The notes: generated by a model not told the origin, from the letters alone. 64,000 nucleotides of DNA from Candidatus Taenariivivens baikalensis (GCA_009691445.1 SICL01000004.1:30708-94707), one strand, 5' to 3'; positions 34,356 through 56,292 are shown, counted from the first letter of the stretch. Numbers and translations are program-made.

Positions 34356-34425
34356 GTCATTGCGAGCGAAGCGAAGCAATTTCAGCGCTAAGATTGCCGC
34401 GCTCGCTCCGCTCCCTCGCAATGAC
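34356..34425. repeat. Family-A 70-bp nested palindromic element (GTCATTGCGAG ... CTCGCAATGAC) inside the atp operon between atpH and atpA
   Basis: 11-bp perfect terminal inverted repeats are read directly from the sequence. A near-identical copy in opposite orientation lies at 54761-54830. Confidence 0.85.
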
Positions 34426-44724: not shown

Positions 44725-45324
44725 ATGAAACAATCCTACACCACTTCAGAAGCTGCGGAAATTTGCCGAGTCTCCCGCGGAACTATCCTGCGCTGGATCC
44801 GCGAGAAAAAATTAAAAGCCTCCGTCACTTTTGGTGGTCATCACCGCATTGAAGCCGTCGACCTTACCGGGGTATTAGAAAAACTGGGAATGAAACTGCC
44901 TGACAGTTTTTCGGCGTTTTCCCGCTGTTTACCCTCCCGGGTACTGCTTGTGGATGAGGAGGAGGAAATTGGAAAATTAGCCCGTCATTATTTACAAAAA
45001 TATTATCCTGCCTTGCAAATTGAAGAAGCCGCTGACAGTTTCAGTGCCGGCATTACCATCCAAAAATACCGCCCGGATCTTATTGTTCTGAATATCATGC
45101 CTCCCGGTATACAAGGCTATGATCTGTGTGAATCTATTCGAAATTTGTCGCGGGAATACAGGCCGGCCATTCTTGCCATCACGGCGCATGAAAACAACTG
45201 GGAACACCGCATCTTGGAAGCGGGAGCCGATCTGTGCCTAAAGAAACCGTTTCATGAGAACGATTTTATCAGTGCGATTAGAATTCTCTGGAATAGCACC
45301 TATAAAAATAAAAGGGCGGGATGA
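44725..45324 (+). CDS. HTH (excisionase/MerR-like) plus atypical receiver-domain regulator. The phospho-acceptor Asp is replaced by Asn.
   Basis: The N-terminal TSEAAEICRVSRGTILRWIREKKL helix-turn-helix is followed by a CheY-like fold with the VDEEEE acidic pocket, and with T and K conserved (AITAHE, LKKPF). The D57-equivalent position reads LIVLNIMPPG instead of LLDxMP. Confidence 0.75.
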   Translation: MKQSYTTSEAAEICRVSRGTILRWIREKKLKASVTFGGHHRIEAVDLTGVLEKLGMKLPDSFSAFSRCLPSRVLLVDEEEEIGKLARHYLQKYYPALQIEEAADSFSAGITIQKYRPDLIVLNIMPPGIQGYDLCESIRNLSREYRPAILAITAHENNWEHRILEAGADLCLKKPFHENDFISAIRILWNSTYKNKRAG

Positions 45325-45343
45325 ACTTTTGATAGAGAAAAAT

Positions 45344-48300
45344 ATGACCAACAATCCAAAGACATGTCATAAAAAAATAATGTGGAATAGAGGTGTTCTG
45401 AAGGACCGTTTTGCGCCGTTTCTTTTACTCTTGACCTGTTTAAGCCTGACAACAGTGGGTTTCGTCTTTCTCAGTCGCATGACCCATGAAAAAGCATCCC
45501 TTAAGTTTGAGTCGGAATGGCGGGATATCAAGGCCAGGATCCAGACCCATGTCAATATGTACACTGAACAGCTTTACGCAAACCGCGCGCTCTTTGCCGC
45601 AAGTAAGAGTGTTGAACGTAATGAGTGGGCGTCGTTTATAAACAACCAACGTCTCTCAAGTCAGTTCCCAGGAATTGTCGCAAGTGAATTTATTGAATCG
45701 GTTTCAAGCGACGCATTGGGGGACTTTATCCGCTCCGTCAAAGAGGATAAGAGCATCGATCCAGAAGGATATCCCACATTTGATGTCTTCCCCAAACATC
45801 AAACAAAAAATCATTATATTGTCACTTATGTTGAGCCTTTTACGTCTAATCGAAAAGTGTTTGGATATAACATGTCTTCAGACGGCATGCGTTCTGAGGT
45901 TTTGCAAAGAGCCGCTGAAACCGGAAAAGCTGTAGCCACAAGCAAGATTCACCTTATTCAAGATCCGTCCCATGCGGGCCTAATCATCGCTTTGCCCATC
46001 TATAAAAACAAACTCCCCGTTACCAACAAGACAGAGCGGTTAACTGCGCTTCAGGGGTTCGTCGCAAGCGTCATCGATACTTCTGCTTTTTTTAGACACG
46101 ACTTCATTCTGTCCACGGCTACCAACCAAATCGGTTTTGAGATTTTCGATTCTGCCCTGACAACCAAAGATCACCTCTTGTTTAATTTTGATCATTCGCT
46201 CAATTCCACAAATCAACACGACAAGGCGAAGTTCTCGGTCAACACGCCGATGGTGATCGGAAACCGAACATTCATCCTGAACTTCACAGCCTCACAAAAT
46301 TTCCGTCTGGGTGAGGGACAGGAGTGGTTTCCCTACTGGATTTTAGGCATCGGTATCCTCACCAGCTTTCTTTTTTTCACCCTTCTGCAAGTTTTAGCCT
46401 CGAGAGAATCCAAAGCCCTGCAATATGCTGACGAAAAGACGGAGGAAATTAAACTGCTGCTTGAGGCTTCAACGGACGGCATCTATGGAATTAATCTCGA
46501 AGGTCGGTTTACTTTTATGAATTCTGCCGCGCTTCAATTGCTGGGTTACGCTCTTGAGGAAGTTATCGGAAAAAATATTCATCACTTAGCTCATTTAAAA
46601 AAGTTAGACGGTGCCCCCTACCCCATCGAAGATTGCCCGATCTATCAAGCATTTCAATCTGGAATCTCCTGCCGAGTCGATACTGAGGTTTTGTGGCACA
46701 AAGACGGAACCTCCTTCCCCGTCGAATATTCTGCTTCACCGATGATTCGCCGGGGAAAGATATTAGGGTCATTGTGTACTTTTAGTGATATCACCGAGCG
46801 TAAAATAGCAGAGGAAAAATTAGCTCGAGCGGCAGCGGAAGCCGAAATTTTGCATCAAGCAGCTACTTTCGCCACACGGGATCTCACCTTTGATGTGGCC
46901 CTTAAAGAAACGCTTGCCTTAGTTTGTCAGGGTATCCATTGGCCCGTGGGACATGTCTGTAAATTGTCCCCCGATCACAAGGGCTTGGAATCCACCGATA
47001 TCTGGTATTTGAACGATCCAGAAAAGTACCACCCCTTCAAAAAATTGACGGAAAGTTTATATTTCCCTATCGGAACGGGGCTGCCCGGACGCATTGCCCA
47101 ATCTCGTGACATTGCTTGGATTGATAATGTGCAGAATGACCATAATTTCCCGCGAAAACAAGTTTGCGCCGAAGTCGGTATTACCTCTGCTTTTGCTTTT
47201 CCGATTACGATTGAAGGACGGGTCGTTGCGGTTTTAGAGTTCTTCATCCCCAAAGCACTAAAACCGGATGCGGACATTTTGAAACTCGTGGGCAATCTCT
47301 CAAAACAACTTCAAGTGGTTTTTGAGAAAAAAAGGGCGGCGGAAGCGGCGGAAGCGGTGGAAGCAAGCCGTCTCCGGCTGCAGGCTGTTTTGGATTCTGC
47401 CACAGAAGTTTCCATTATTACAACAGACACTCAAGGGCTTATCACCGTCTTTAACAAAGGAGCAGAAAAAATGCTGGGCTGGAAAGCAGAGGAAATGCTT
47501 TACCAGAAAACGCCGGAGGTTATTCACACTTTTGAGGAAGTCTCCGAGCGGGGAAAAGAAATGTCTCTCACTTCAGGGAAAACTGTGGAGGGATTTGAAG
47601 TTTTTGTGGCCAATGCGCGTGCAGGAAAGCCTCAGCTCAGGGAATGGACTTACGTCAAAAAAGACGGCACCCGTTTCCCCGTCAGTCTTTATATTACGGG
47701 AGTGTACAATGCCAGCCATGAGCTTTCTGGCTTTTTGGGAATCGCTACGGATATCACAAAAATTAAACAAGCTGAAATTCAGCTTCAAGAAGCGGCGCGT
47801 CAAGCATACGAAGCGTCGCGTATAAAATCTGATTTCTTAGCCACCATGAGCCATGAAATTCGTACGCCAATGAACGCCATTCTCGGAATGAGCGACTTAC
47901 TGACCGAGACGCCTTTGACGGCTGAACAAAAAGACTATCTGGCACGATTATCCCGCGCGGGCGAGACTCTTTTAAGCATTATTAATGACGTGCTTGACCT
48001 TTCAAAGATTGAAGCCCGCTCCATGGAGATTGAGCATATTGCATTTAATTTAAAAGAGCAGGTAGGAAAAACGGTCGACTTGCTGGCCTCTAAAGCTCAT
48101 CAAAAAGGGCTCGCGATTCATTGGCAGCTCGACCCAGAGATTCCGGCGATACTGCAGTCTGACCCAACCCGCTTGTGGCAAATCCTGCTGAATTTGATCA
48201 ACAATGCCATCAAGTTTACTGAGGAAGGTGAGATTTCCTTGTCGGTAAAACCGGTAAAAAAGGAGATTGAACATAAAGAGAAAAATGAAATTTGGCTTCA

Positions 48301-48988
48301 CTTTGCTCTGTCGGATACCGGAATTGGCATTCCGAGAGATAAAATAAACAAACTATTTAAGCCGTTCGCGCAGGCCGATTCATCAACGACGCGAAAATTC
48401 GGCGGTACCGGTTTGGGCTTAAATATCTGCAAACGGCTTGTGGAGCTGATGGGAGGAAAGATTTGGGCGGAAAGCGAGGAAGGAAAAGGTTCCTGTTTCC
48501 ATTTTATTCTCCCCTTTGGGAAATCAGATACGCTTCAGGAAAAGGCCCTGGAGACAGCTTCCGAAGACTCCCCCTTGGCATCAAGTCTAAAAATTCTTCT
48601 TGCGGATGACTCCGAGGACAATCAGAGTCTCATCCAGGCTTATTTGAAGAAATATCCTTATCAAATTGACATCGCAGAAAATGGAAAAATTGCCTGCGAC
48701 AAATCGGCCGCCACGGAGTACGATGTCATCTTGATGGATATGCAAATGCCGGAAATGGACGGCTATACCGCCTCTCGAATTATTCGCGAACGAGAAGCAA
48801 TCGGCGGCCCCAAACGGCATGTGCCGATTATTGCCCTGACAGCCAACGCATTAATTCAGGACGCTCAAAGATGTCTCGCCGCTGGCTGCGATCAGCATCT
48901 TTCGAAACCCATCAAAAAATCGATTTTGTTACAAACTTTGCAGTCGATATCTATAAAAAGGCTGCTTGAAAGGCGGGGACTAAAATGA
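45344..48988 (+). CDS. hybrid sensor histidine kinase: TM-CHASE-TM-PAS-GAF-PAS-HisKA-HATPase-REC
   Basis: A CHASE-like periplasmic region lies between two TM segments. It is followed by PAS-like, GAF-like and PAS-like segments, the H-box SHEIRTPMN, N/G-box ATPase motifs (NNAIKFT, GGTGLGL) and a C-terminal receiver (LLADDSEDN...DVILMDMQMPEMDG). The ATG at 45344 is preferred because the track's ORF runs into the upstream gene. Confidence 0.9.
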   Translation: MTNNPKTCHKKIMWNRGVLKDRFAPFLLLLTCLSLTTVGFVFLSRMTHEKASLKFESEWRDIKARIQTHVNMYTEQLYANRALFAASKSVERNEWASFINNQRLSSQFPGIVASEFIESVSSDALGDFIRSVKEDKSIDPEGYPTFDVFPKHQTKNHYIVTYVEPFTSNRKVFGYNMSSDGMRSEVLQRAAETGKAVATSKIHLIQDPSHAGLIIALPIYKNKLPVTNKTERLTALQGFVASVIDTSAFFRHDFILSTATNQIGFEIFDSALTTKDHLLFNFDHSLNSTNQHDKAKFSVNTPMVIGNRTFILNFTASQNFRLGEGQEWFPYWILGIGILTSFLFFTLLQVLASRESKALQYADEKTEEIKLLLEASTDGIYGINLEGRFTFMNSAALQLLGYALEEVIGKNIHHLAHLKKLDGAPYPIEDCPIYQAFQSGISCRVDTEVLWHKDGTSFPVEYSASPMIRRGKILGSLCTFSDITERKIAEEKLARAAAEAEILHQAATFATRDLTFDVALKETLALVCQGIHWPVGHVCKLSPDHKGLESTDIWYLNDPEKYHPFKKLTESLYFPIGTGLPGRIAQSRDIAWIDNVQNDHNFPRKQVCAEVGITSAFAFPITIEGRVVAVLEFFIPKALKPDADILKLVGNLSKQLQVVFEKKRAAEAAEAVEASRLRLQAVLDSATEVSIITTDTQGLITVFNKGAEKMLGWKAEEMLYQKTPEVIHTFEEVSERGKEMSLTSGKTVEGFEVFVANARAGKPQLREWTYVKKDGTRFPVSLYITGVYNASHELSGFLGIATDITKIKQAEIQLQEAARQAYEASRIKSDFLATMSHEIRTPMNAILGMSDLLTETPLTAEQKDYLARLSRAGETLLSIINDVLDLSKIEARSMEIEHIAFNLKEQVGKTVDLLASKAHQKGLAIHWQLDPEIPAILQSDPTRLWQILLNLINNAIKFTEEGEISLSVKPVKKEIEHKEKNEIWLHFALSDTGIGIPRDKINKLFKPFAQADSSTTRKFGGTGLGLNICKRLVELMGGKIWAESEEGKGSCFHFILPFGKSDTLQEKALETASEDSPLASSLKILLADDSEDNQSLIQAYLKKYPYQIDIAENGKIACDKSAATEYDVILMDMQMPEMDGYTASRIIREREAIGGPKRHVPIIALTANALIQDAQRCLAAGCDQHLSKPIKKSILLQTLQSISIKRLLERRGLK

Positions 48989-49455
48989 AACAAATTATCT
49001 GTATTGATCTACTGGAAGACAATGACGACGATGCCCTGGTGATTAAGGTTAAAAGTCAAAAACTACGATACGATTTTCACTGGGAAATTTTTAAGGACGC
49101 GTCCTCAGCGGAAGCCCATTACAAGCATTTGCTCACCGAGCTTGGGCCTTCAAATCCCCTCCCTTCCAACCGCCTGATCCTGTTGGATCTGGCATTGCAG
49201 CAATCTCATGGATTTGAATTTCTGAGTTTCATTAAAAAGGGCGATCCACGCCTTGCGACACTGCCGATCATTATTGTCACTGCTTCCGATTCCAAAGAGG
49301 ATGTGAGAAATACTTTCAAGGGAGGCGGCACCGCCTTCTTAAAAAAACCTTTTGCTCTGGAGGAATTCACACGCACTCTTGAAACCCTGATCATGACCGG
49401 CCGCTTGAAACCTCTTTGCGACGCTGACGAAAAGACGGATGCGCTGAAGAGATAA
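48985..49455 (+). CDS. single-domain response regulator receiver protein
   Basis: This is a CheY-like ORF with IDLLEDNDDD, RLILLDLAL (Asp present), VTASD and KKPF. Its start overlaps the kinase stop (ATGA). Confidence 0.8.
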   Translation: MKQIICIDLLEDNDDDALVIKVKSQKLRYDFHWEIFKDASSAEAHYKHLLTELGPSNPLPSNRLILLDLALQQSHGFEFLSFIKKGDPRLATLPIIIVTASDSKEDVRNTFKGGGTAFLKKPFALEEFTRTLETLIMTGRLKPLCDADEKTDALKR

Positions 49456-50332: not shown

Positions 50333-51730
50333 ATGAAAAACTTAATGCGCTTAAAACCAACCGCACCAGGTTTTCTTCTTTTAGTCCTTTCTCTTTTCGG
50401 GCCATCTTCCACCGCCTTTGCCGTTGGTTCGGGCGGTTTTGAAAATGCGACCTTCAGTTCAATTGCTATCTCTCAGAGTAATGCCGTCACCGCTCAAGGC
50501 GAAGAACCGGCGGCTATTTCCTATAACCCGGCAGGAATTGCTAATCTAAAAGGCCTGCAAGTGGAATCCAATATGGGTTTTATCAGCGTAATCACCCATA
50601 TCAGTAAGCAGAGCCAGGACGGAAAAACTCAGAGCTCCGGGACACTCGTGGAAGTTCCCACGGGCTATCTGACTTTCAATCCCGGAAAAGTCTTTAATGA
50701 CCGGCTGGTGCTAGGAATCGGGTCCGATTCGCCCTTTGGCCTCTCCAACAAGTGGGATTCAGCCAATCAAGCAGTCCGGTACACGGGCTACAAGAACTGG
50801 CTCAAAATGTATACCCTGAAACCCACGGTTGCCTTCAAATTCACGGATTGGTTGTCGGTTGGTGCCGGGGCCATGAATTACCGCGTTTTTAATTTTGGAT
50901 CAGTCCAAGCCTACCCTAACAATGCTATTGTTCCGGGATCTCCGGACGGCCAGCTTCGACTCAATATGAGCGGCTCTCATTGGGGTTGGCATTTCGGAGC
51001 GCGTGTGAAACCAGCTCCAAAGCATCAGTTTGGATTTTATTTCCGGAGTCCTGTTAAAATTCACATCCGAGGAAAAGTAAAGGTGGAACGCTCTTCCTTT
51101 GCGCCGGGAGGACGTTTTGAAAGCGGTGCTTATTCCAATCTTGATCTTCCGATGAATATGACCTGGGGCTATGCTTTCATGCCTAATCCCAAGAACACTA
51201 TTGAAGCAGATTTTGGCTACACACGCTGGTCTCAGCATAATCGTCTGGATGTGATTTCTACCGACAGCATCAGCACCTTCGATGACATGATTTTAGCCGC
51301 CATCAGTCTCAATGCCCATGATTATGACGACACCTTCTCGATTCATCTCGGAGGAAATCACAAGGTCAATGACCGCCTGACCTTGCGCGCGGGAACATTA
51401 TTTTATACGGCCGCGGTGCCCAAAAACCATCTTATCCCTGCGGTGCCGGACAGTAACAGGCTGGCTTTTTCTGCAGGTCTCAGCTACCAGATCAATCAAA
51501 TGATGGCCCTGGATGTTTGCTATATGAACATGATTGGCCTGCGCAGAGGCGTGAATAATGATATCGGCGAATCCCTCGGCGGATCTGGGGATGGAAAATA
51601 TACTTCTGATTATAATATTTTCCTGATCTCAATGAGGTTGATGTGGGAAGATCTGTTTGACAAGATGCTGCCTGGAAGTAAACCCTCAGAACCTGCTCAA
51701 AAGTTGGAAGTTTCCCCGGAAATAAAATAA
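50333..51730 (+). CDS. outer-membrane long-chain fatty acid/hydrophobic compound transporter, FadL/OmpP1/TodX family
   Basis: A signal peptide and the family-typical ISYNPAG motif near the N-terminus of a roughly 440-aa beta-barrel are present. Confidence 0.75.
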   Translation: MKNLMRLKPTAPGFLLLVLSLFGPSSTAFAVGSGGFENATFSSIAISQSNAVTAQGEEPAAISYNPAGIANLKGLQVESNMGFISVITHISKQSQDGKTQSSGTLVEVPTGYLTFNPGKVFNDRLVLGIGSDSPFGLSNKWDSANQAVRYTGYKNWLKMYTLKPTVAFKFTDWLSVGAGAMNYRVFNFGSVQAYPNNAIVPGSPDGQLRLNMSGSHWGWHFGARVKPAPKHQFGFYFRSPVKIHIRGKVKVERSSFAPGGRFESGAYSNLDLPMNMTWGYAFMPNPKNTIEADFGYTRWSQHNRLDVISTDSISTFDDMILAAISLNAHDYDDTFSIHLGGNHKVNDRLTLRAGTLFYTAAVPKNHLIPAVPDSNRLAFSAGLSYQINQMMALDVCYMNMIGLRRGVNNDIGESLGGSGDGKYTSDYNIFLISMRLMWEDLFDKMLPGSKPSEPAQKLEVSPEIK

Positions 51731-53146: not shown

Positions 53147-54739
53147 TTAATCCTGGTGGATAATTCCGGCAATTCGGCCAGACCTGATTTGAACGCGTAC
53201 ATGGGCAGACTGTGCTTTGGATCCCGAACGCACAGTATGAATCACCGCATCAAACACCTCTGCGCTGGATCCTAAATCAATCGTCGGCGAGTGAACATCC
53301 GCTGAACTGAGGTTTTTACCTTGGGCATTAACGAGATCCACATGATACGTCGTTTGCTCTGTGGTCCAAAACTTGTGATCTATCGCCAGATCTTTAAAGC
53401 TAAGCAATTGGTTTTGTAATGAAAAATCTTCCAGGGGAGAGGATGTTTCAAACCCGTATTTCCCAATCAGATCCCGGCGCTCAATAAGCACCTTGGCAAC
53501 GGTTTCGCTGTCCTCGGGCTTGGAAAGTTTTCCGGTTTTCACAATCGCACGAATATTCTCATCCGAAAAGGACATGATAATCTTGGTTGCCCAAAGCGCA
53601 TCCGCACGGGTTAAGTCCTTAAACGCGTAATGCGGCAGCTGGGTTTTGTATTTCGCGGGATCAAAATAACGGTTGTCAAAATAACCGACTGCCGGAGAAA
53701 CACTCATCAGATTTTCTCCCGTATCTTTCCAACGTTTTTGCCAGGGCTTTTTCCAAAATCCAAAAGAAAAAATGGCTTTCCCGGTATCACCATAATCCAC
53801 AAAATACTCGTGAGTGGCCATGGGAGGCTTGGCGCCGTTCGAAGAACTGCCTAGTGCATCCTGAAAATCCATCAGGTAATGTTTCAAAACTGGCTTTCCA
53901 TTGTCACTCACCAGAAGATCCTGCGTATTACCTTCCCGCAGGTCATCCTCACCTAACCAAGAACCAAAGACACGCAAAGCCCGAAGCGCCCGTAAGCAAT
54001 CATGATTAATTTTATCTTGAGGATCAGCGCTGCGGCGGCCTTGAAATCGAAAAACCCCTTTGTCTTCTCCTGCCGGTGTTTTTCTCGCGGAAGCCCGGTA
54101 ACGGCCTTCTTCGTCCTGGGGAACAAAAGTAATATATTGTTCAAAACGTTCCTGCGTTAGTTTTTTCTGAAAGCCGGTGTCGTCATAGACAGTCGCAGAG
54201 GGGGCAATGGAGACCTGCTTCAAGGTGAAGGTCGCAATTGTATATTGAGGAACTGAATAGCCAATCGCGTGAAAAAAACGGCTGGCGATGGAATCGGCGG
54301 ATGTCTGAAGCTCCAACGAGTCTTCGGAATCGAATTTCAAAAAATAAGCTCCTCCCTTGGAATCCTTGATAAAAAATCCAGGATGAAGACCGTTGAATTT
54401 GCCTTGAGTGATCGTAAGTCCGTTGCTGAAATCAGGGCCTTCATTTTCCGCAGGACCTTTGGCCAGCTCCTCAGCACTGAGGGGCTTGCGGGCGTGACGA
54501 TTCACAAAGAACGCTGAATCCGGAACTTCATCATAGGCATTAACATCCAGCGAACGGAGTTTTTTCTTGGCAACAAAGCGGTAAAGCCGGTCCAAATGAA
54601 GAAAATTGGTGCCTTCGTAGTAGACGTTCTGATTAAAAAGATCGGCGAAAAAACTGGTCTCTTGTGTTTTGATCTCTTGCGCAAAGGCAGGCGCCGACAG
54701 CGGAAGCGTTGCTGCAATCATGACAATGGCTATTGTCAT
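53147..54739 (-). CDS. secreted hypothetical protein (530 aa with signal peptide)
   Basis: The ATG at 54739 gives MTIAIVMIAATLPLSAPAFAQE, a classical signal peptide. I do not recognise the family. The track's longer N-terminus reads through repeat 54761-54830. Confidence 0.6.
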   Translation of the reverse strand: MTIAIVMIAATLPLSAPAFAQEIKTQETSFFADLFNQNVYYEGTNFLHLDRLYRFVAKKKLRSLDVNAYDEVPDSAFFVNRHARKPLSAEELAKGPAENEGPDFSNGLTITQGKFNGLHPGFFIKDSKGGAYFLKFDSEDSLELQTSADSIASRFFHAIGYSVPQYTIATFTLKQVSIAPSATVYDDTGFQKKLTQERFEQYITFVPQDEEGRYRASARKTPAGEDKGVFRFQGRRSADPQDKINHDCLRALRALRVFGSWLGEDDLREGNTQDLLVSDNGKPVLKHYLMDFQDALGSSSNGAKPPMATHEYFVDYGDTGKAIFSFGFWKKPWQKRWKDTGENLMSVSPAVGYFDNRYFDPAKYKTQLPHYAFKDLTRADALWATKIIMSFSDENIRAIVKTGKLSKPEDSETVAKVLIERRDLIGKYGFETSSPLEDFSLQNQLLSFKDLAIDHKFWTTEQTTYHVDLVNAQGKNLSSADVHSPTIDLGSSAEVFDAVIHTVRSGSKAQSAHVRVQIRSGRIAGIIHQD

Positions 54740-54760
54740 CCTAAGGCCTCTTTGCCTTAC

Positions 54761-54830
54761 GTCATTGCGAGGGAGCGGAGCGACCGCGGCAATCTCAGCG
54801 CTGAGATTGCTTCGCTTCGCTCGCAATGAC
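54761..54830. repeat. Family-A 70-bp element, a near-identical reverse-orientation copy of 34356-34425
   Basis: GTCATTGCGAGGGAGCGGAGCGAcCGCGGCAATCTcAGCGCTGAgATTGCTTCGCTTCGCTCGCAATGAC aligns to the reverse complement of the atpH-atpA copy with about 4 mismatches. Confidence 0.85.
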
Positions 54831-54833
54831 GAC

Positions 54834-56162
54834 TTAAAAGGGTGTGCTGGTTTTAACATAATAATTGGTTCCTTCATCTCCATGGGCCATTTCCAACGAC
54901 AGCAACACAACGTTTGCCAAACTCGTGCGAATCCCAACTCCATACGATTCACGCAAATTCTTTGATTTCAACTTGTCAAAATTTTTGAAGACCTGCCCTG
55001 AATCCAGAAATACCACGGCGTCCGTCTTCCAATCTCTGTATTCCCAAAGATTGTACCGATACTCTACATTGAAAACGACCATGCTGCGGTCTGTAAACCG
55101 GTTGTAGCGATAGGCCCGAAGGGTTTCGCTCATCTGGTCCGACATCCCGTAACCTCCAAGCCGCGCCATTTGATGAAAGGGCACAGAGTGTCCGTTTGTT
55201 TCAGAGTTATGTTCGCCGTAAGCACGAATCCCAAGTACGCGGCGCGGAGTGCCCAGCTTAAAATAATGACTGAGTTCCATTTCGTATTTGAAAAACTCGG
55301 CATTGGAACTGTAAAGACCCTGGTTATAGCTGAAGCCAAACTTTTGAAGACCGCCGGTTGTGGAATTTCCAGCCTGATCACGGGTATCACGCTTCGCCTC
55401 AGTTTTATAAACTAAAAGTTCATCCCCGTGAAGCCCGGGAATGCCGGCGCTGCCATTGAAAATACCACTGTTATAACGGCCCATCGATCCATCACGACCA
55501 TCCGCGATGTGTACATTGCGGTAGCCAAATTTAAAATCCAGGGAATGCGCCACGTCCGGCTTGTACCCAAGAAGATATTGAAGATTGGTTTCTTCCCGTT
55601 TGTACACATAACCATCTCCCCGGCTGGAATGGGGACCGATGCCATAGAAATGTTCCTGGGGATGGGTTTCATATTGAAAATACCCCTGAGTCCGGAATCC
55701 GGTTCCGCCGATGCGCTCTACGCCAAGACGCGATCCAACGTTAAAATTATAATGGGACGCAAAATGGATCCAGCTATCCGCCACCAAATCCGGAAAACGT
55801 TCCTTCTGATGAAGGGCCCTGACAAAATCAACTTCAGCGCCTATATCCAGACGCGCCAAGCTAATCAAATTGAGTTTTGGTGTCAGACCTTTTTTGCCTA
55901 GCGTGTCATACACCCACTGGATCTTTTCCATCACGTGGTGTTTTTCCATATAGACCAAGCTCTTATCCACGGGGTAACGCAGGATTTCAAAGGGATATTC
56001 CGGAAAATGCAGCAGACTTCGTTCAAACAGAGTGGCCTGTTTAGGTTCGCTCTGAAGCGGAGCATATTTATCGTAAGAACTATCCTGGGCAAACAACGGG
56101 GGCGAAGCAAGAAGCAACACGGCTGTAAAACGGATGATGGATAAGAATGATTTTTGTTTCAT
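54834..56162 (-). CDS. Omp85 (BamA/TamA/TpsB superfamily) outer-membrane beta-barrel protein, short form
   Basis: The ATG at 56162 gives the signal peptide MKQKSFLSIIRFTAVLLLASPPLFAQD. The C-terminal barrel has alternating aromatic/hydrophobic strands, a Gly-rich motif, and a terminal ...YVKTSTPF ending in Phe, as in the bacterial surface antigen D15 domain. Confidence 0.65.
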   Translation of the reverse strand: MKQKSFLSIIRFTAVLLLASPPLFAQDSSYDKYAPLQSEPKQATLFERSLLHFPEYPFEILRYPVDKSLVYMEKHHVMEKIQWVYDTLGKKGLTPKLNLISLARLDIGAEVDFVRALHQKERFPDLVADSWIHFASHYNFNVGSRLGVERIGGTGFRTQGYFQYETHPQEHFYGIGPHSSRGDGYVYKREETNLQYLLGYKPDVAHSLDFKFGYRNVHIADGRDGSMGRYNSGIFNGSAGIPGLHGDELLVYKTEAKRDTRDQAGNSTTGGLQKFGFSYNQGLYSSNAEFFKYEMELSHYFKLGTPRRVLGIRAYGEHNSETNGHSVPFHQMARLGGYGMSDQMSETLRAYRYNRFTDRSMVVFNVEYRYNLWEYRDWKTDAVVFLDSGQVFKNFDKLKSKNLRESYGVGIRTSLANVVLLSLEMAHGDEGTNYYVKTSTPF

Positions 56163-56292
56163 AGGGTAATAAAGTGTTTCTCGAAAAATATTTATCGGCT
56201 CCCGAGGATTTTCCTTAAGATTTATTTTTGATTCTTCAACTGCCGGACGCAGAAACAACTGGTGGGGCCAGGGCCAGCCGGACTTGGCCTCT

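Follow-up and report, generated by a model that had tools for sequence, protein, structure and literature searches.

Two adjacent genes on the minus strand of a 64,000-nucleotide stretch from Candidatus Taenariivivens baikalensis (GCA_009691445.1 SICL01000004.1:30708-94707, hereafter the window), an uncultured member of the Omnitrophota, raise the question of what a short outer-membrane barrel of the Omp85 family and a secreted protein of unrecognised family do together. The initial annotation proposed that the two may form a transporter-cargo pair after the logic of the TpsB-TpsA systems, with co-conservation of the genes as a check. Both open reading frames were confirmed at the coordinates given, both on the minus strand.

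The upstream gene (54834..56162, minus strand, stop codon 54834..54836; the mechanical open reading frame extends further, to a TTG at 56258) encodes 442 amino acids (MKQKSF...), in agreement with the approximately 440 amino acids first reported for the Omp85 barrel. The protein matches the Pfam family Omp85 (PF01103) over residues 155-426 (E 1.1e-15, 58.5 bits, cut-off 24) and is identical to a 442-amino acid database record, “hypothetical protein EXS63_02470” of a Candidatus Omnitrophica MAG. A signal peptide was read from the sequence (residues 1-26, ...LLLASPPLFA/QD, 56085..56162, minus), and in all barrel homologues the n-region is basic, a hydrophobic core comes next, and a conserved SYDRYA follows an AxA-type site. 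An AlphaFold2 model (pLDDT 86) predicts a signal peptide, a helical hairpin (residues 45-90) and then 16 beta strands. The hairpin (H45-74 and H77-90) lies in a putative periplasmic N-terminal segment (residues 27-92, 55887..56084, minus) that was delimited from the secondary structure of the model, where pLDDT is only 50-85, and that carries the conserved motifs SYD(K/R)YA and YPFE(I/L)xR(Y/W)PxDK. Among 54 homologues P57, P64, and P95 are invariant and D31 and Y33 nearly so. The predicted barrel itself (residues 93-442, 54837..55886, minus) ends in an invariant F442; according to DSSP of the model its strands comprise residues 93-101, 104-112, 126-135, 139-148, 156-172, 185-200, 206-221, 247-259, 270-282, 288-302, 308-321, 360-375, 378-392, 404-415, 418-428, and 431-437. 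Between strands 11 (308-321) and 12 (360-375), model position and conservation place the loop-6 motif LRAYRYNRF (55095..55121, minus; R349, R355, and F356 invariant in the 54 homologues), and the family consensus TLRGYDxNRF corresponds to the Omp85 (V)RG(Y/F) signature. The hallmarks of Omp85 proteins are thus present: 16 strands, a long loop 6 with the signature motif and a C-terminal aromatic residue.

The initial annotation had allowed at most one POTRA-like region, which was right but understated. No POTRA was found in the model or by Pfam at E ≤ 1, none of 90 barrel homologues has a POTRA match, and only ~65 mature residues without a recognised domain precede strand 1; BamA carries five POTRA domains and TamA three. 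It is well supported by the model that the 442-amino acid protein is a 16-stranded, POTRA-less Omp85 barrel of the outer membrane with only a short conserved helical segment in the periplasm. With no N-terminal functional domain it fits the noNterm Omp85 proteins (Heinz and Lithgow 2014, PMC4104836), a descriptive class that is not monophyletic. The proteins LIC12252/12254/12258 of Leptospira are likewise 16-stranded, POTRA-less Omp85 proteins of unknown function, and in some leptospiral noNterm groups the flanking gene also encodes an exported product, in this case a DUF1566 lipoprotein (Bettin et al. 2024, PMC11358297). Neither the leptospiral nor the Cytophagales noNterm proteins are reported to have a kinase-fold partner. 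The window barrel differs from the leptospiral proteins in its own conserved ~65-residue N-terminal segment, and it reaches 99.6 bits against a cut-off of 200 for the Leptospira/Cytophagales subfamily model NF047779 and has no DUF5982 match.

The downstream gene (53147..54739, minus, stop codon 53147..53149, GAGG 8 nt upstream of the ATG) encodes 530 amino acids (beginning MTIAIVMIAATLPLSAPAFA, mature from QE...) and its product is identical to the database record “hypothetical protein EXS63_02465”. As first described, it is a secreted protein of unrecognised family, with a signal peptide and no Pfam or NCBIfam match even at E ≤ 1. The signal peptide of the 530-residue form was read from the sequence (residues 1-21, ...LPLSAPAFA/QE, 54677..54739, minus) and contains no lipobox; a Sec-type signal peptide without a conserved Cys is present in 51 out of 51 aligned homologues. 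A lipoprotein was considered and rejected, the lipobox Cys being found in 0 out of 51. An N-terminal extension follows (residues 22-105, 54425..54676, minus; helices 30-57, then coil), and its coil holds the invariant motif N67-x-x-D70-E71-V-P-D-S-x-F77-F-x-N-R81-H82, of which R81 is still invariant in the 28-45%-identical set. The protein-kinase-like core (residues 106-435, 53435..54424, minus) consists of a beta-rich N-lobe, a catalytic segment and a helical C-lobe, and precedes a C-terminal FN3/Ig-like beta sandwich (residues 436-530, ending ...IIHQD, 53150..53434, minus). The predicted structure shows a bilobal fold of the CtkA/Fam20/CotH/HipA kind of atypical kinase, which bears out the earlier guess of CotH or an atypical kinase. 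A profile search of the family against PDB sequences returned repeat artefacts only (designed armadillo proteins, 26-residue stretches, per-domain scores ~2 bits). Overall, a soluble protein with an N-terminal extension, a HipA/CtkA/PI4KII/Fam20/CotH-type core and a C-terminal FN3-like domain is well supported, as is Sec export of both products. The kinase-fold family comprises >3,400 clusters at 50% identity and has no Pfam model. Fam20C/Fam20B and CotH have no detectable sequence relationship to the window protein; they act in compartments provided with ATP (Golgi lumen, mother cell) and are not known to have a barrel partner.

Candidate catalytic residues were assigned by motif order and predicted secondary structure rather than by residue-level superposition. 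K135 in YFLKFD (54335..54337, minus) is the candidate ATP-binding beta3 lysine, as suggested by motif order; it lies in a strand (E131-136) followed by a helix (H144-159) with the acids E143 and D149, and the position is K or R in 51 out of 51 close homologues and K in 42 out of 49 distant ones. The candidate catalytic loop D266-L-R-E-G-N271 (53927..53944, minus) has the spacing D-x4-N (cf. HRDxxxxN, DRHxxN, DxHxKN), lies between a helix (H255-262) and a strand (E272-279) and retains D266 in 50 and N271 in 49 of 51 close homologues. D291-F292-Q293 (53861..53869, minus) occupies the candidate metal-binding “DFG” position after two short strands (E272-279, E282-289), as in canonical kinases, and reads DFG in 33 out of 49 distant members. 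The candidate elements therefore occur in canonical order (beta3 Lys, alphaC acid, D-x4-N loop, two short strands, DF), and each of K135, D266, N271, and D291 is retained in 47-51 of the 51 close homologues. Two strings that the initial annotation had singled out as kinase-like proved to be real fold elements: GAYFLKFD holds the beta3 K135, and INHDC...SWLGEDDL covers the helix ahead of the catalytic loop together with the beginning of that loop (D266). Judged from sequence and model, the 530-amino acid protein probably keeps the Lys/D-x4-N/DF(G) catalytic set. It departs from otherwise conserved residues at four positions (E149D, R249L, N264E, and R501H), and the residues most invariant across the whole family (R81, D126, R236, D242, R250, R253, D380, and W383) are not classical catalytic ones.

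The relationship to HipA-type kinases is distant. Among structures the protein matches CtkA (JHP0940) of Helicobacter pylori best, and identity to CtkA and HipA-type kinases is about 12-15%. Searches of the window protein against kinase HMMs including HipA_2 (PF20613) and HipA_C (PF07804) gave no match at E ≤ 1, and the best-scoring homologue falls just below the HipA cut-off (26.8 bits, cut-off 27). Sub-threshold HipA_2 and HipA_C matches recur in 10 and 5 of 49 diverse members, and every other Pfam family was matched only once among them. An hhalign comparison of the diverse alignment with E. coli HipA gave no usable alignment (probability 0.2%), and the residue mapping therefore rests on motifs and the model. 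The window protein is set apart from CtkA and HipA by its signal peptide, its N-terminal extension, the FN3-like tail and the pairing with an Omp85 protein. HipBA systems consist of a cytoplasmic kinase toxin and an adjacent HipB/HipS-type antitoxin. A HipBA-like toxin–antitoxin was rejected, given the signal peptide and the absence of an HTH antitoxin; next to the kinase-fold gene lie genes for the Omp85 barrel and a JAB-domain protein, with neither a HipB-like antitoxin nor any DNA-binding partner among them.

The two genes are adjacent on the same strand in about 144 out of 147 informative loci in the Omnitrophota, Acidobacteriota, KSB1, and Calditrichota. The barrel gene lies immediately upstream of the kinase-fold gene in 76 out of 77 informative genome loci, 6 out of 6 distant look-ups and 61 out of 63 metagenome loci, with every other neighbor varying. 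Only three clear exceptions were identified (L050, L099, and L167, the last with swapped order). Where a genome encodes two kinase paralogues, it also encodes two barrels (L021/L023, L064/L069, and L014/L029), and pairwise identities of barrels and kinases correlate (r = 0.91, Mantel 0/999). The murA-trmD-rnhB-yraN context of the window, where yraN abuts the barrel gene, is shared by 40-48 of 80 loci, about half of the Omnitrophota loci, and is not carried with the pair into other phyla; no other neighbor tracks the pair there either, JAB, MshEN, HAD, FadL, and FeS-assembly genes being shared with the closest relatives only. No Omp85 or other domain was found in three long kinase-fold members that were searched for Rosetta-stone fusions (P0322, 1158 amino acids; P0326, 742; P0357, 969). 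The data support the barrel and the kinase-fold protein as a functional pair, and the genetics suggests that the two proteins may be in physical contact. No description of the pair was found in the literature searched.

Two further genes join the pair in many related loci. In 32 out of 70 loci with long flanks (~46%), a TLC-family gene (PF03219) is found at most 3.2 kb from the pair. The linked genes score 49-90 bits against PF03219 (cut-off 21), their position relative to the pair follows one of two gene orders, they share the strand of the pair throughout the genome set, and many encode C-terminal HEAT repeats. This homologue of TLC/NTT ATP:ADP translocases is often accompanied by a DUF5329 (PF17263) lipoprotein, and a single operon then covers all three layers of the envelope. 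An intact K-D-N-D tetrad was found in 53 out of 55 TLC-linked kinases versus 16 out of 35 without an adjacent TLC gene (Fisher p = 3.7e-8, loci counted without correction for phylogeny); the 19 degenerate tetrads among the latter show at least 11 different motifs, and one clade supplies eight of the 19. A tblastn screen of the window with four TLC and three DUF5329 queries found nothing real, and the window represents a two-gene version with an intact tetrad that lacks the adjacent PF03219 and PF17263 genes of the four-gene module. Many of the transporters linked to the pair in relatives have the same architecture as the NTT-HEAT proteins that a survey found widespread in free-living bacteria, with no known function; the survey makes no mention of an Omp85, kinase-fold or DUF5329 neighborhood (Major et al. 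2017, PMC5381601). These two additional partners, which were outside the view of the initial annotation, shift the mechanism that is most likely. About half of the loci lack the transporter, many of them degenerate yet still paired, so that the core function cannot be catalysis alone; the full candidate catalytic set in the window and in 53 out of 55 transporter-linked relatives argues for catalysis at least there.

The preferred reading, held tentatively and at just short of an even chance, is an outer-membrane-docked, nucleotide-dependent envelope enzyme, with the two genes acting as a single envelope module. The kinase-fold protein and its own barrel would be produced together, as the start codon inside the last barrel codons of relatives suggests, and the kinase-fold protein would stay docked on the barrel as a dedicated partner, either at the periplasmic face or threaded to the surface. 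There it may act on an envelope substrate by a nucleotide-dependent transfer reaction, of which phosphorylation would be the simplest. In the complete module of related loci, an inner-membrane NTT/TLC antiporter homologue with or without HEAT repeats and the DUF5329 lipoprotein are encoded alongside, and the antiporter, following the gradients, could release ATP and take up ADP and so feed the enzyme. The window has intact candidate catalytic residues and no transporter within 64 kb, and its enzyme would therefore rely on a transporter gene located elsewhere or on another nucleotide source. A more specific version, in which the pair is the core of an undescribed envelope phosphorylation system with an NTT-type antiporter that exports ATP and a barrel-docked kinase that modifies outer-membrane or surface components, is possible but on the unlikely side.

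If such a phosphorylation system exists, some diderm bacteria would keep up a dedicated periplasmic ATP supply against the textbook view of a periplasm without ATP (PMC7391070), and the principle that ATP is not directly available to processes in the envelope would need qualification. Three widespread groups without a known function meet in this neighborhood, the noNterm Omp85 barrels, the NTT/NTT-HEAT proteins of free-living bacteria and the kinase-fold family, and the kinase active site is kept with the transporter and decays without it, which makes ATP-dependent chemistry in the periplasm or at the outer membrane, supplied by a dedicated transporter, a testable proposal. The phosphorylation system would provide the first function for noNterm barrels, for the NTT-HEAT proteins of free-living bacteria and for DUF5329, and its kinase would join POTRA-bound substrates, TpsA proteins and TamB as a further kind of Omp85 partner.

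An unlikely alternative is two-partner-like secretion, with the barrel as dedicated translocator that takes the kinase across the outer membrane and the kinase acting outside the cell, its target being a host or prey cell, surface proteins or matrix proteins, as has been proposed for CtkA of H. pylori or for CotH and Fam20 in their own compartments. As with FhaC-FHA and CdiB-CdiA, an Omp85-superfamily barrel gene precedes, on one strand, the gene for a partner exported by Sec, and the two are strictly co-inherited one to one, as in tpsB-tpsA. CtkA is moreover a secreted kinase, Fam20 and CotH are secretory-pathway or coat kinases, and many Omnitrophota are thought to be host-dependent nanobacteria. 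However, a type Vb TpsB has an N-terminal plug helix and two POTRA domains, which bind the cargo, and a TpsA has an N-terminal TPS domain (Haemagg_act, PF05860) and a beta-helical passenger, whereas the window barrel has no POTRA and its partner has no TPS domain and consists of kinase-like and FN3-like domains; the TpsB-TpsA logic of the initial annotation is not supported on either count. The barrel fold is nearer to the insertases BamA, Sam50, and TamA than to FhaC or CdiB, and the family is as common in the Acidobacteriota, including the free-living Bryobacteraceae. An enzyme at work in a foreign cytoplasm would hardly be expected to be linked to a nucleotide transporter of the inner membrane, and pairs with degenerate active sites are still retained. 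Should the kinase nevertheless be a secreted effector, the pair would constitute a new enzyme secretion route in the Omnitrophota and Acidobacteriota.

Also unlikely, and slightly more so, is a structural role in which the kinase fold supplies the missing periplasmic domain of a POTRA-less Omp85, as receptor or chaperone subunit of a specialised insertase, comparable to the lipoproteins of BamA and to TamA-TamB, or as plug or regulator of the barrel, with nucleotide binding at most regulatory as in pseudokinases such as Fam20A. The retention of the pair where K135, D266, N271, or D291 has been replaced (the 19 TLC-less loci above) and the noncatalytic nature of the most invariant residues agree with this role, as do the BamA/TamA-like barrel and the FN3-like domain, a typical protein-binding module. 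The conserved candidate catalytic set of the window and the transporter-linked relatives argues against it, and no gene for a substrate outer-membrane protein was found consistently linked near the pair. TamB differs from this partner in being an inner-membrane-anchored beta-taco conduit for lipid or protein, whereas the kinase-fold and FN3-like partner has a cleavable signal peptide.

More doubtful still is nucleotide scavenging, with the barrel as pore, the kinase-fold protein as periplasmic nucleotide binder or processor and the NTT homologue as importer, the role that NTTs have in obligate intracellular bacteria. All characterised NTTs import nucleotides, and import or exchange is the only NTT activity demonstrated (PMC5381601). 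The operon that spans all three envelope layers and the intact nucleotide-binding residues that accompany the transporter also fit scavenging; the catalytic base D266, which pure binding would not need, is conserved as well, and half of the loci, the window included, lack the transporter. The often reduced metabolism of Omnitrophota favors scavenging, but the module is also widespread in the Acidobacteriota with their large genomes, nucleotides (~500 Da) cross outer membranes via ordinary porins, and Omp85 barrels are not known to be solute channels. The absence of any functional link, the pair being inherited synteny beside murA-trmD-rnhB-yraN and the 530-amino acid protein having an unrelated periplasmic role, is very improbable and close to refuted, as the shared context of about half of the Omnitrophota loci is outweighed by a pair that persists without it, in other phyla and in second paralogous copies, overlaps in relatives and is broken in only three informative loci.

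The kinase-fold gene of relatives starts inside the last barrel codons (MLKPAHPFK, corresponding to an ATG at 54859), and the two genes overlap by 26 nt in four loci of close relatives (L002, L003, L004, and L010). This ancestral start is still in frame in the window, which makes the start of the gene ambiguous there. A 70-bp palindromic (REP/MITE-like) element (54761..54830, minus) is inserted after the stop codon of the barrel, ahead of the annotated start of the kinase-fold gene, and adds 31 in-frame codons ahead of the hydrophobic core; the product is therefore either 530 or 570 amino acids long, and both forms carry a signal peptide. The element thus splits, in the window, two genes that overlap in relatives. 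As RNA it forms a hairpin (-46.7 kcal/mol, z -4.3) and was rejected as an intrinsic terminator, since it has no U-run and is a repeated element: a second copy with four mismatches is located at 34356..34425, and two matches occurred in 0 out of 100 shuffles.

The barrel gene lies on the minus strand at 54834..56162 and encodes a protein of 442 amino acids that starts with MKQKSF; the mechanically extended open reading frame reaches a TTG at 56258, and the shorter start agrees with the N-termini of homologues and with the public record ("hypothetical protein EXS63_02470", from a Candidatus Omnitrophica MAG, 105-kb contig). Pfam places the protein in Omp85 (PF01103; 58.5 bits with the cut-off at 24, E 1.1e-15), and its match to the NCBIfam subfamily NF047779 remains below threshold (99.6 against 200). 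An AlphaFold2 model based on 54 homologues (pLDDT 86.1) contains a signal peptide, a less confidently modeled helical hairpin (residues 45–74 and 77–90) and 16 beta strands between residues 93 and 437. The long loop connecting strands 11 and 12 carries the loop-6 signature of Omp85 proteins in the form LRAYRYNRF (TLRGYDxNRF in the family consensus; R349, R355 and F356 are invariant). POTRA domains were absent from the model, from the Pfam search and from the precomputed domains of 90 homologues. Two family-specific motifs mark the mature N-terminus, SYD(R/K)YA right behind the cleavage site followed by YPFE(L/I)xR(W/Y)PxDK. The assignment as a Sec-exported POTRA-less Omp85 is well supported, and the protein belongs to the "noNterm" Omp85 proteins, a descriptive class (PMC4104836). 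Membership in the leptospiral/Cytophagales DUF5982 subgroup (PMC11358297) was ruled out by the Pfam and NCBIfam searches.

The neighboring gene (53147..54739, minus strand) encodes a 530-amino-acid protein starting with MTIAIVMIAATLPLSAPAFA|QE that is identical to "hypothetical protein EXS63_02465" and matched no Pfam or NCBIfam family even at E ≤ 1. Its structure model (51 homologues; pLDDT 88.5, pTM 0.89) matched the Helicobacter pylori secreted kinase CtkA (score 14.4), Fam20 kinases (13.3–12.4), PI4KIIα (12.7), CotH (12.1), HipA-like/HipT (11.8–11.3), actin-fragmin kinase (11.2) and MavQ (10.5), and a Sec-exported kinase fold with an FN3-like tail is well supported. By fold, the protein is a member of the protein-kinase-like superfamily; it passes no family model. 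Profile comparisons suggest a weak but consistent tie to HipA: the best homologue reached 26.8 bits on HipA_2 (cut-off 27), and the sub-threshold matches among 49 diverse members were to HipA_2 (n = 10), HipA_C (n = 5) and other Pfam families once each. The context typical of HipBA systems is absent around the gene.

Conserved residues of the protein run in canonical kinase-core order. The candidate catalytic elements are K135 (YFLKFD) on the strand 131–136, the acidic E143 and D149 on the helix that follows, D266-x4-N271 between the helix 255–262 and the strand 272–279, and D291-F292 directly after the next strand (DFG in 33 of 49 distant members). Judged by predicted fold and conservation, the two strings that the initial annotation had described as kinase-like probably correspond to elements of this core. 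The most invariant positions across the wide family (R81, D126, R236, D242, R250, R253, D380 and W383) lie outside the classical set. The window protein retains an intact candidate tetrad (K135-D266-N271-D291) and carries unusual residues at four positions that are conserved in its homologues (E149D, R249L, N264E and R501H).

At E ≤ 1e-3 the kinase family comprises 3,414 cluster representatives, with 1,006 remaining at 1e-30, and a distant-branch profile matched more than 5,500 proteins, every named one of which is "hypothetical". Among the named sources are Omnitrophota, Acidobacteriota (including Bryobacteraceae), Blastocatellia, KSB1 and Calditrichaceae. One further Omp85-kinase pair is located on a 520-kb contig (L083, GCA_035559535.1, labeled Candidatus Limnocylindrales) whose MAG is placed in a Chloroflexota lineage; either this lineage is diderm or the MAG was mislabeled or misbinned.

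The proposal that the two genes form a pair was borne out in three sets of loci. In 76 out of 80 genome loci collected with the kinase profile, the gene directly upstream, on the same strand, encodes a barrel homologue; three of the other four contigs stop just upstream of the kinase gene, leaving a single real exception (L050). Among the distant-branch look-ups, an Omp85 gene encoding 429–471 amino acids directly precedes the kinase gene in 6/6, and an independent metagenome scan recovered the pairing in 61 of the 63 loci with sufficient upstream sequence. The metagenome deviations consist of one real exception (L099), a truncated kinase fragment (L116) and a swapped order (L167). Other neighbors vary, and the murA-trmD-rnhB-yraN context is common to only about half of the Omnitrophota loci. 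Where a genome encodes two kinase paralogues it also encodes two barrels (L021/L023, which share a contig, L064/L069 and L014/L029). Pairwise identities of barrels and kinases are correlated over 64 pairs (r = 0.91; Mantel 0/999), indicating that the two are inherited as a unit, a correlation that in itself speaks to inheritance and not to contact. Overall, strict co-inheritance of barrel and kinase is well supported. In four loci (L002, L003, L004 and L010) the conserved methionine of M(L/Q)K...FK falls within the terminal Y-V-K codons of the barrel gene, and the resulting 26-nt overlap suggests translational coupling.

In the window, this overlap is split by a 70-bp palindromic element (GTCATTGCGAGCGAAGCGAAGCAATCTC...CTCGCAATGAC; 54761..54830, minus strand) inserted directly behind the barrel stop codon. 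The hairpin that the element forms is strong (−46.7 kcal/mol, z −4.3) and lacks a U-run, and a second copy that differs at four positions is likewise intergenic (34356..34425, plus strand). The ancestral kinase start is retained in frame (ATG 54859, MLKPAHPFK), the element adding 31 in-frame codons to the ancestral frame, and GAGG is found 8 nt upstream of the annotated ATG at 54739. With both start codons present, the product has either 530 or 570 amino acids; both forms retain the AFA|Q site along with the hydrophobic core. The initial description of the two genes was correct as written, with the amendments that both lie on the minus strand and that the kinase start is ambiguous.

Housekeeping genes surround the pair, with yraN (UPF0102), rnhB, trmD, murA, prmC, prfA and rho preceding it on the same strand and genes for a prokaryotic JAB protein and a protein with an MshEN domain downstream. 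The closest relatives (L002 and L003, 54–55% identity) have the order yraN-TLC-barrel-kinase-HAD-JAB-MshEN, with a gene for a TLC/NTT protein of 436–451 amino acids between yraN and the barrel gene (L002 4827–6137, L003 5187–6542) and a gene for a HAD hydrolase behind that of the kinase. The order in the window is yraN-barrel-kinase-JAB-MshEN, with yraN abutting the barrel gene (56163..56292 compared), so that this locus lacks both the TLC and the HAD gene; neither a TLC nor a DUF5329 gene was found anywhere in the window. On the opposite strand, 1.4 kb downstream of the pair, lies the gene for an outer-membrane transporter of the FadL/TodX family (PF03349, E 7.6e-50; 50333..51730, plus strand), whose conservation is limited to the two closest relatives. 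Also on the plus strand, 45254..49455 encodes a hybrid sensor kinase of 1244 amino acids (CHASE-PAS-GAF-HisKA-HATPase-receiver) and then a 156-amino-acid protein in which Pfam recognizes a receiver domain by its C-terminal part alone.

In related loci the pair is often linked to an NTT-family transporter and to DUF5329 (PF17263), a predicted lipoprotein of about 160 amino acids with a lipobox, and this linkage is well supported. PF03219 (TLC ATP/ADP transporter) scored above threshold in four pair-linked proteins with or without HEAT repeats (49–90 bits against 21), and on a Bryobacteraceae contig the end of the kinase gene overlaps a gene for an 875-amino-acid MFS/TLC protein with HEAT repeats. 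The genome loci display the orders TLC-(DUF5329)-barrel-kinase (23 loci) and barrel-kinase-TLC-(DUF5329) (15 loci), and one more has DUF5329 upstream and TLC downstream; all of these TLC genes share the strand of the pair. Counting only loci with at least 4.4 kb of upstream and 3 kb of downstream sequence, a TLC gene is no more than 3.2 kb away from the pair in 25/49, 2/6 and 5/15 loci. DUF5329 is present in 26 out of 80 genome loci, nearly always adjoining the TLC gene (e.g., L010 6095–6589, L065 5929–6408 and L050 878–1327), and L050, which lacks the barrel, is organized as TLC-DUF5329-kinase. A full-text literature search of incomplete coverage returned no mention of DUF5329 and no description of the Omp85-kinase-NTT-DUF5329 combination.

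The tetrad was read from an alignment of 159 kinases. It is intact in 53 and not intact in 2 kinases with an adjacent TLC gene, against 16 intact and 19 not intact where the flanks are long enough to reveal a TLC gene and none is present (Fisher p = 3.7e-8, odds ratio 31, a statistic that ignores shared ancestry). Co-variation of the intact catalytic set with transporter linkage is well supported. The degenerate tetrads comprise at least 11 different motifs (EDDD in 8), a variety that indicates several independent losses; L007 (KDTG) and L013 (RDTS) resemble the window in having no adjacent TLC gene. The tetrad-losing homologues without an adjacent transporter (for example L007, L013, L027 and L035–L047; EDDD, KDTG, RDTS, KGNN and others) have kept the barrel and look like a pseudokinase subfamily.

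The module is best classed with the Omp85 barrels that have a partner protein of their own. The kinase-fold protein would dock on its own barrel, from where an envelope substrate may receive a nucleotide-dependent transfer, and the transporter might feed the periplasm with ATP through ATP/ADP exchange. Such a periplasmic ATP economy is the more radical reading and is less likely than not. The periplasm is commonly stated to be without ATP (PMC7391070) and characterized NTTs are nucleotide importers (PMC5381601), both of which count against the supply step. If true, it would provide a role for the NTT-HEAT proteins of free-living bacteria, left open in PMC5381601. The pair is retained despite degenerate active sites, so its core role must be partly non-catalytic, for example that of a structural or regulatory barrel subunit. 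A purely structural partner is a rival reading, against which stand the intact tetrads that accompany the transporter. Alternatively, the linked genes could serve a nucleotide-scavenging route, in keeping with the import activity of characterized NTTs; pairs with no adjacent TLC gene also occur. TPS-like secretion of a kinase effector is a further, less likely reading. The pair resembles TpsB-TpsA and TamA-TamB in its genetics (an Omp85-plus-partner operon) but lacks their defining traits (POTRA domains, a TPS domain and a TamB-type partner), and the specific TpsB-TpsA logic of the initial annotation is not supported.

A metagenomic locus (L086 3660–11719) encodes on one strand an Omp85 protein, the kinase, a metallophosphoesterase (417 amino acids), a second Omp85 protein (449 amino acids), three small open reading frames and a third Omp85 protein, forming a cluster of several POTRA-less barrels and different exported enzymes. 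A homologue of this phosphoesterase also follows the pair in four other loci (L136, L144, L159 and L166).
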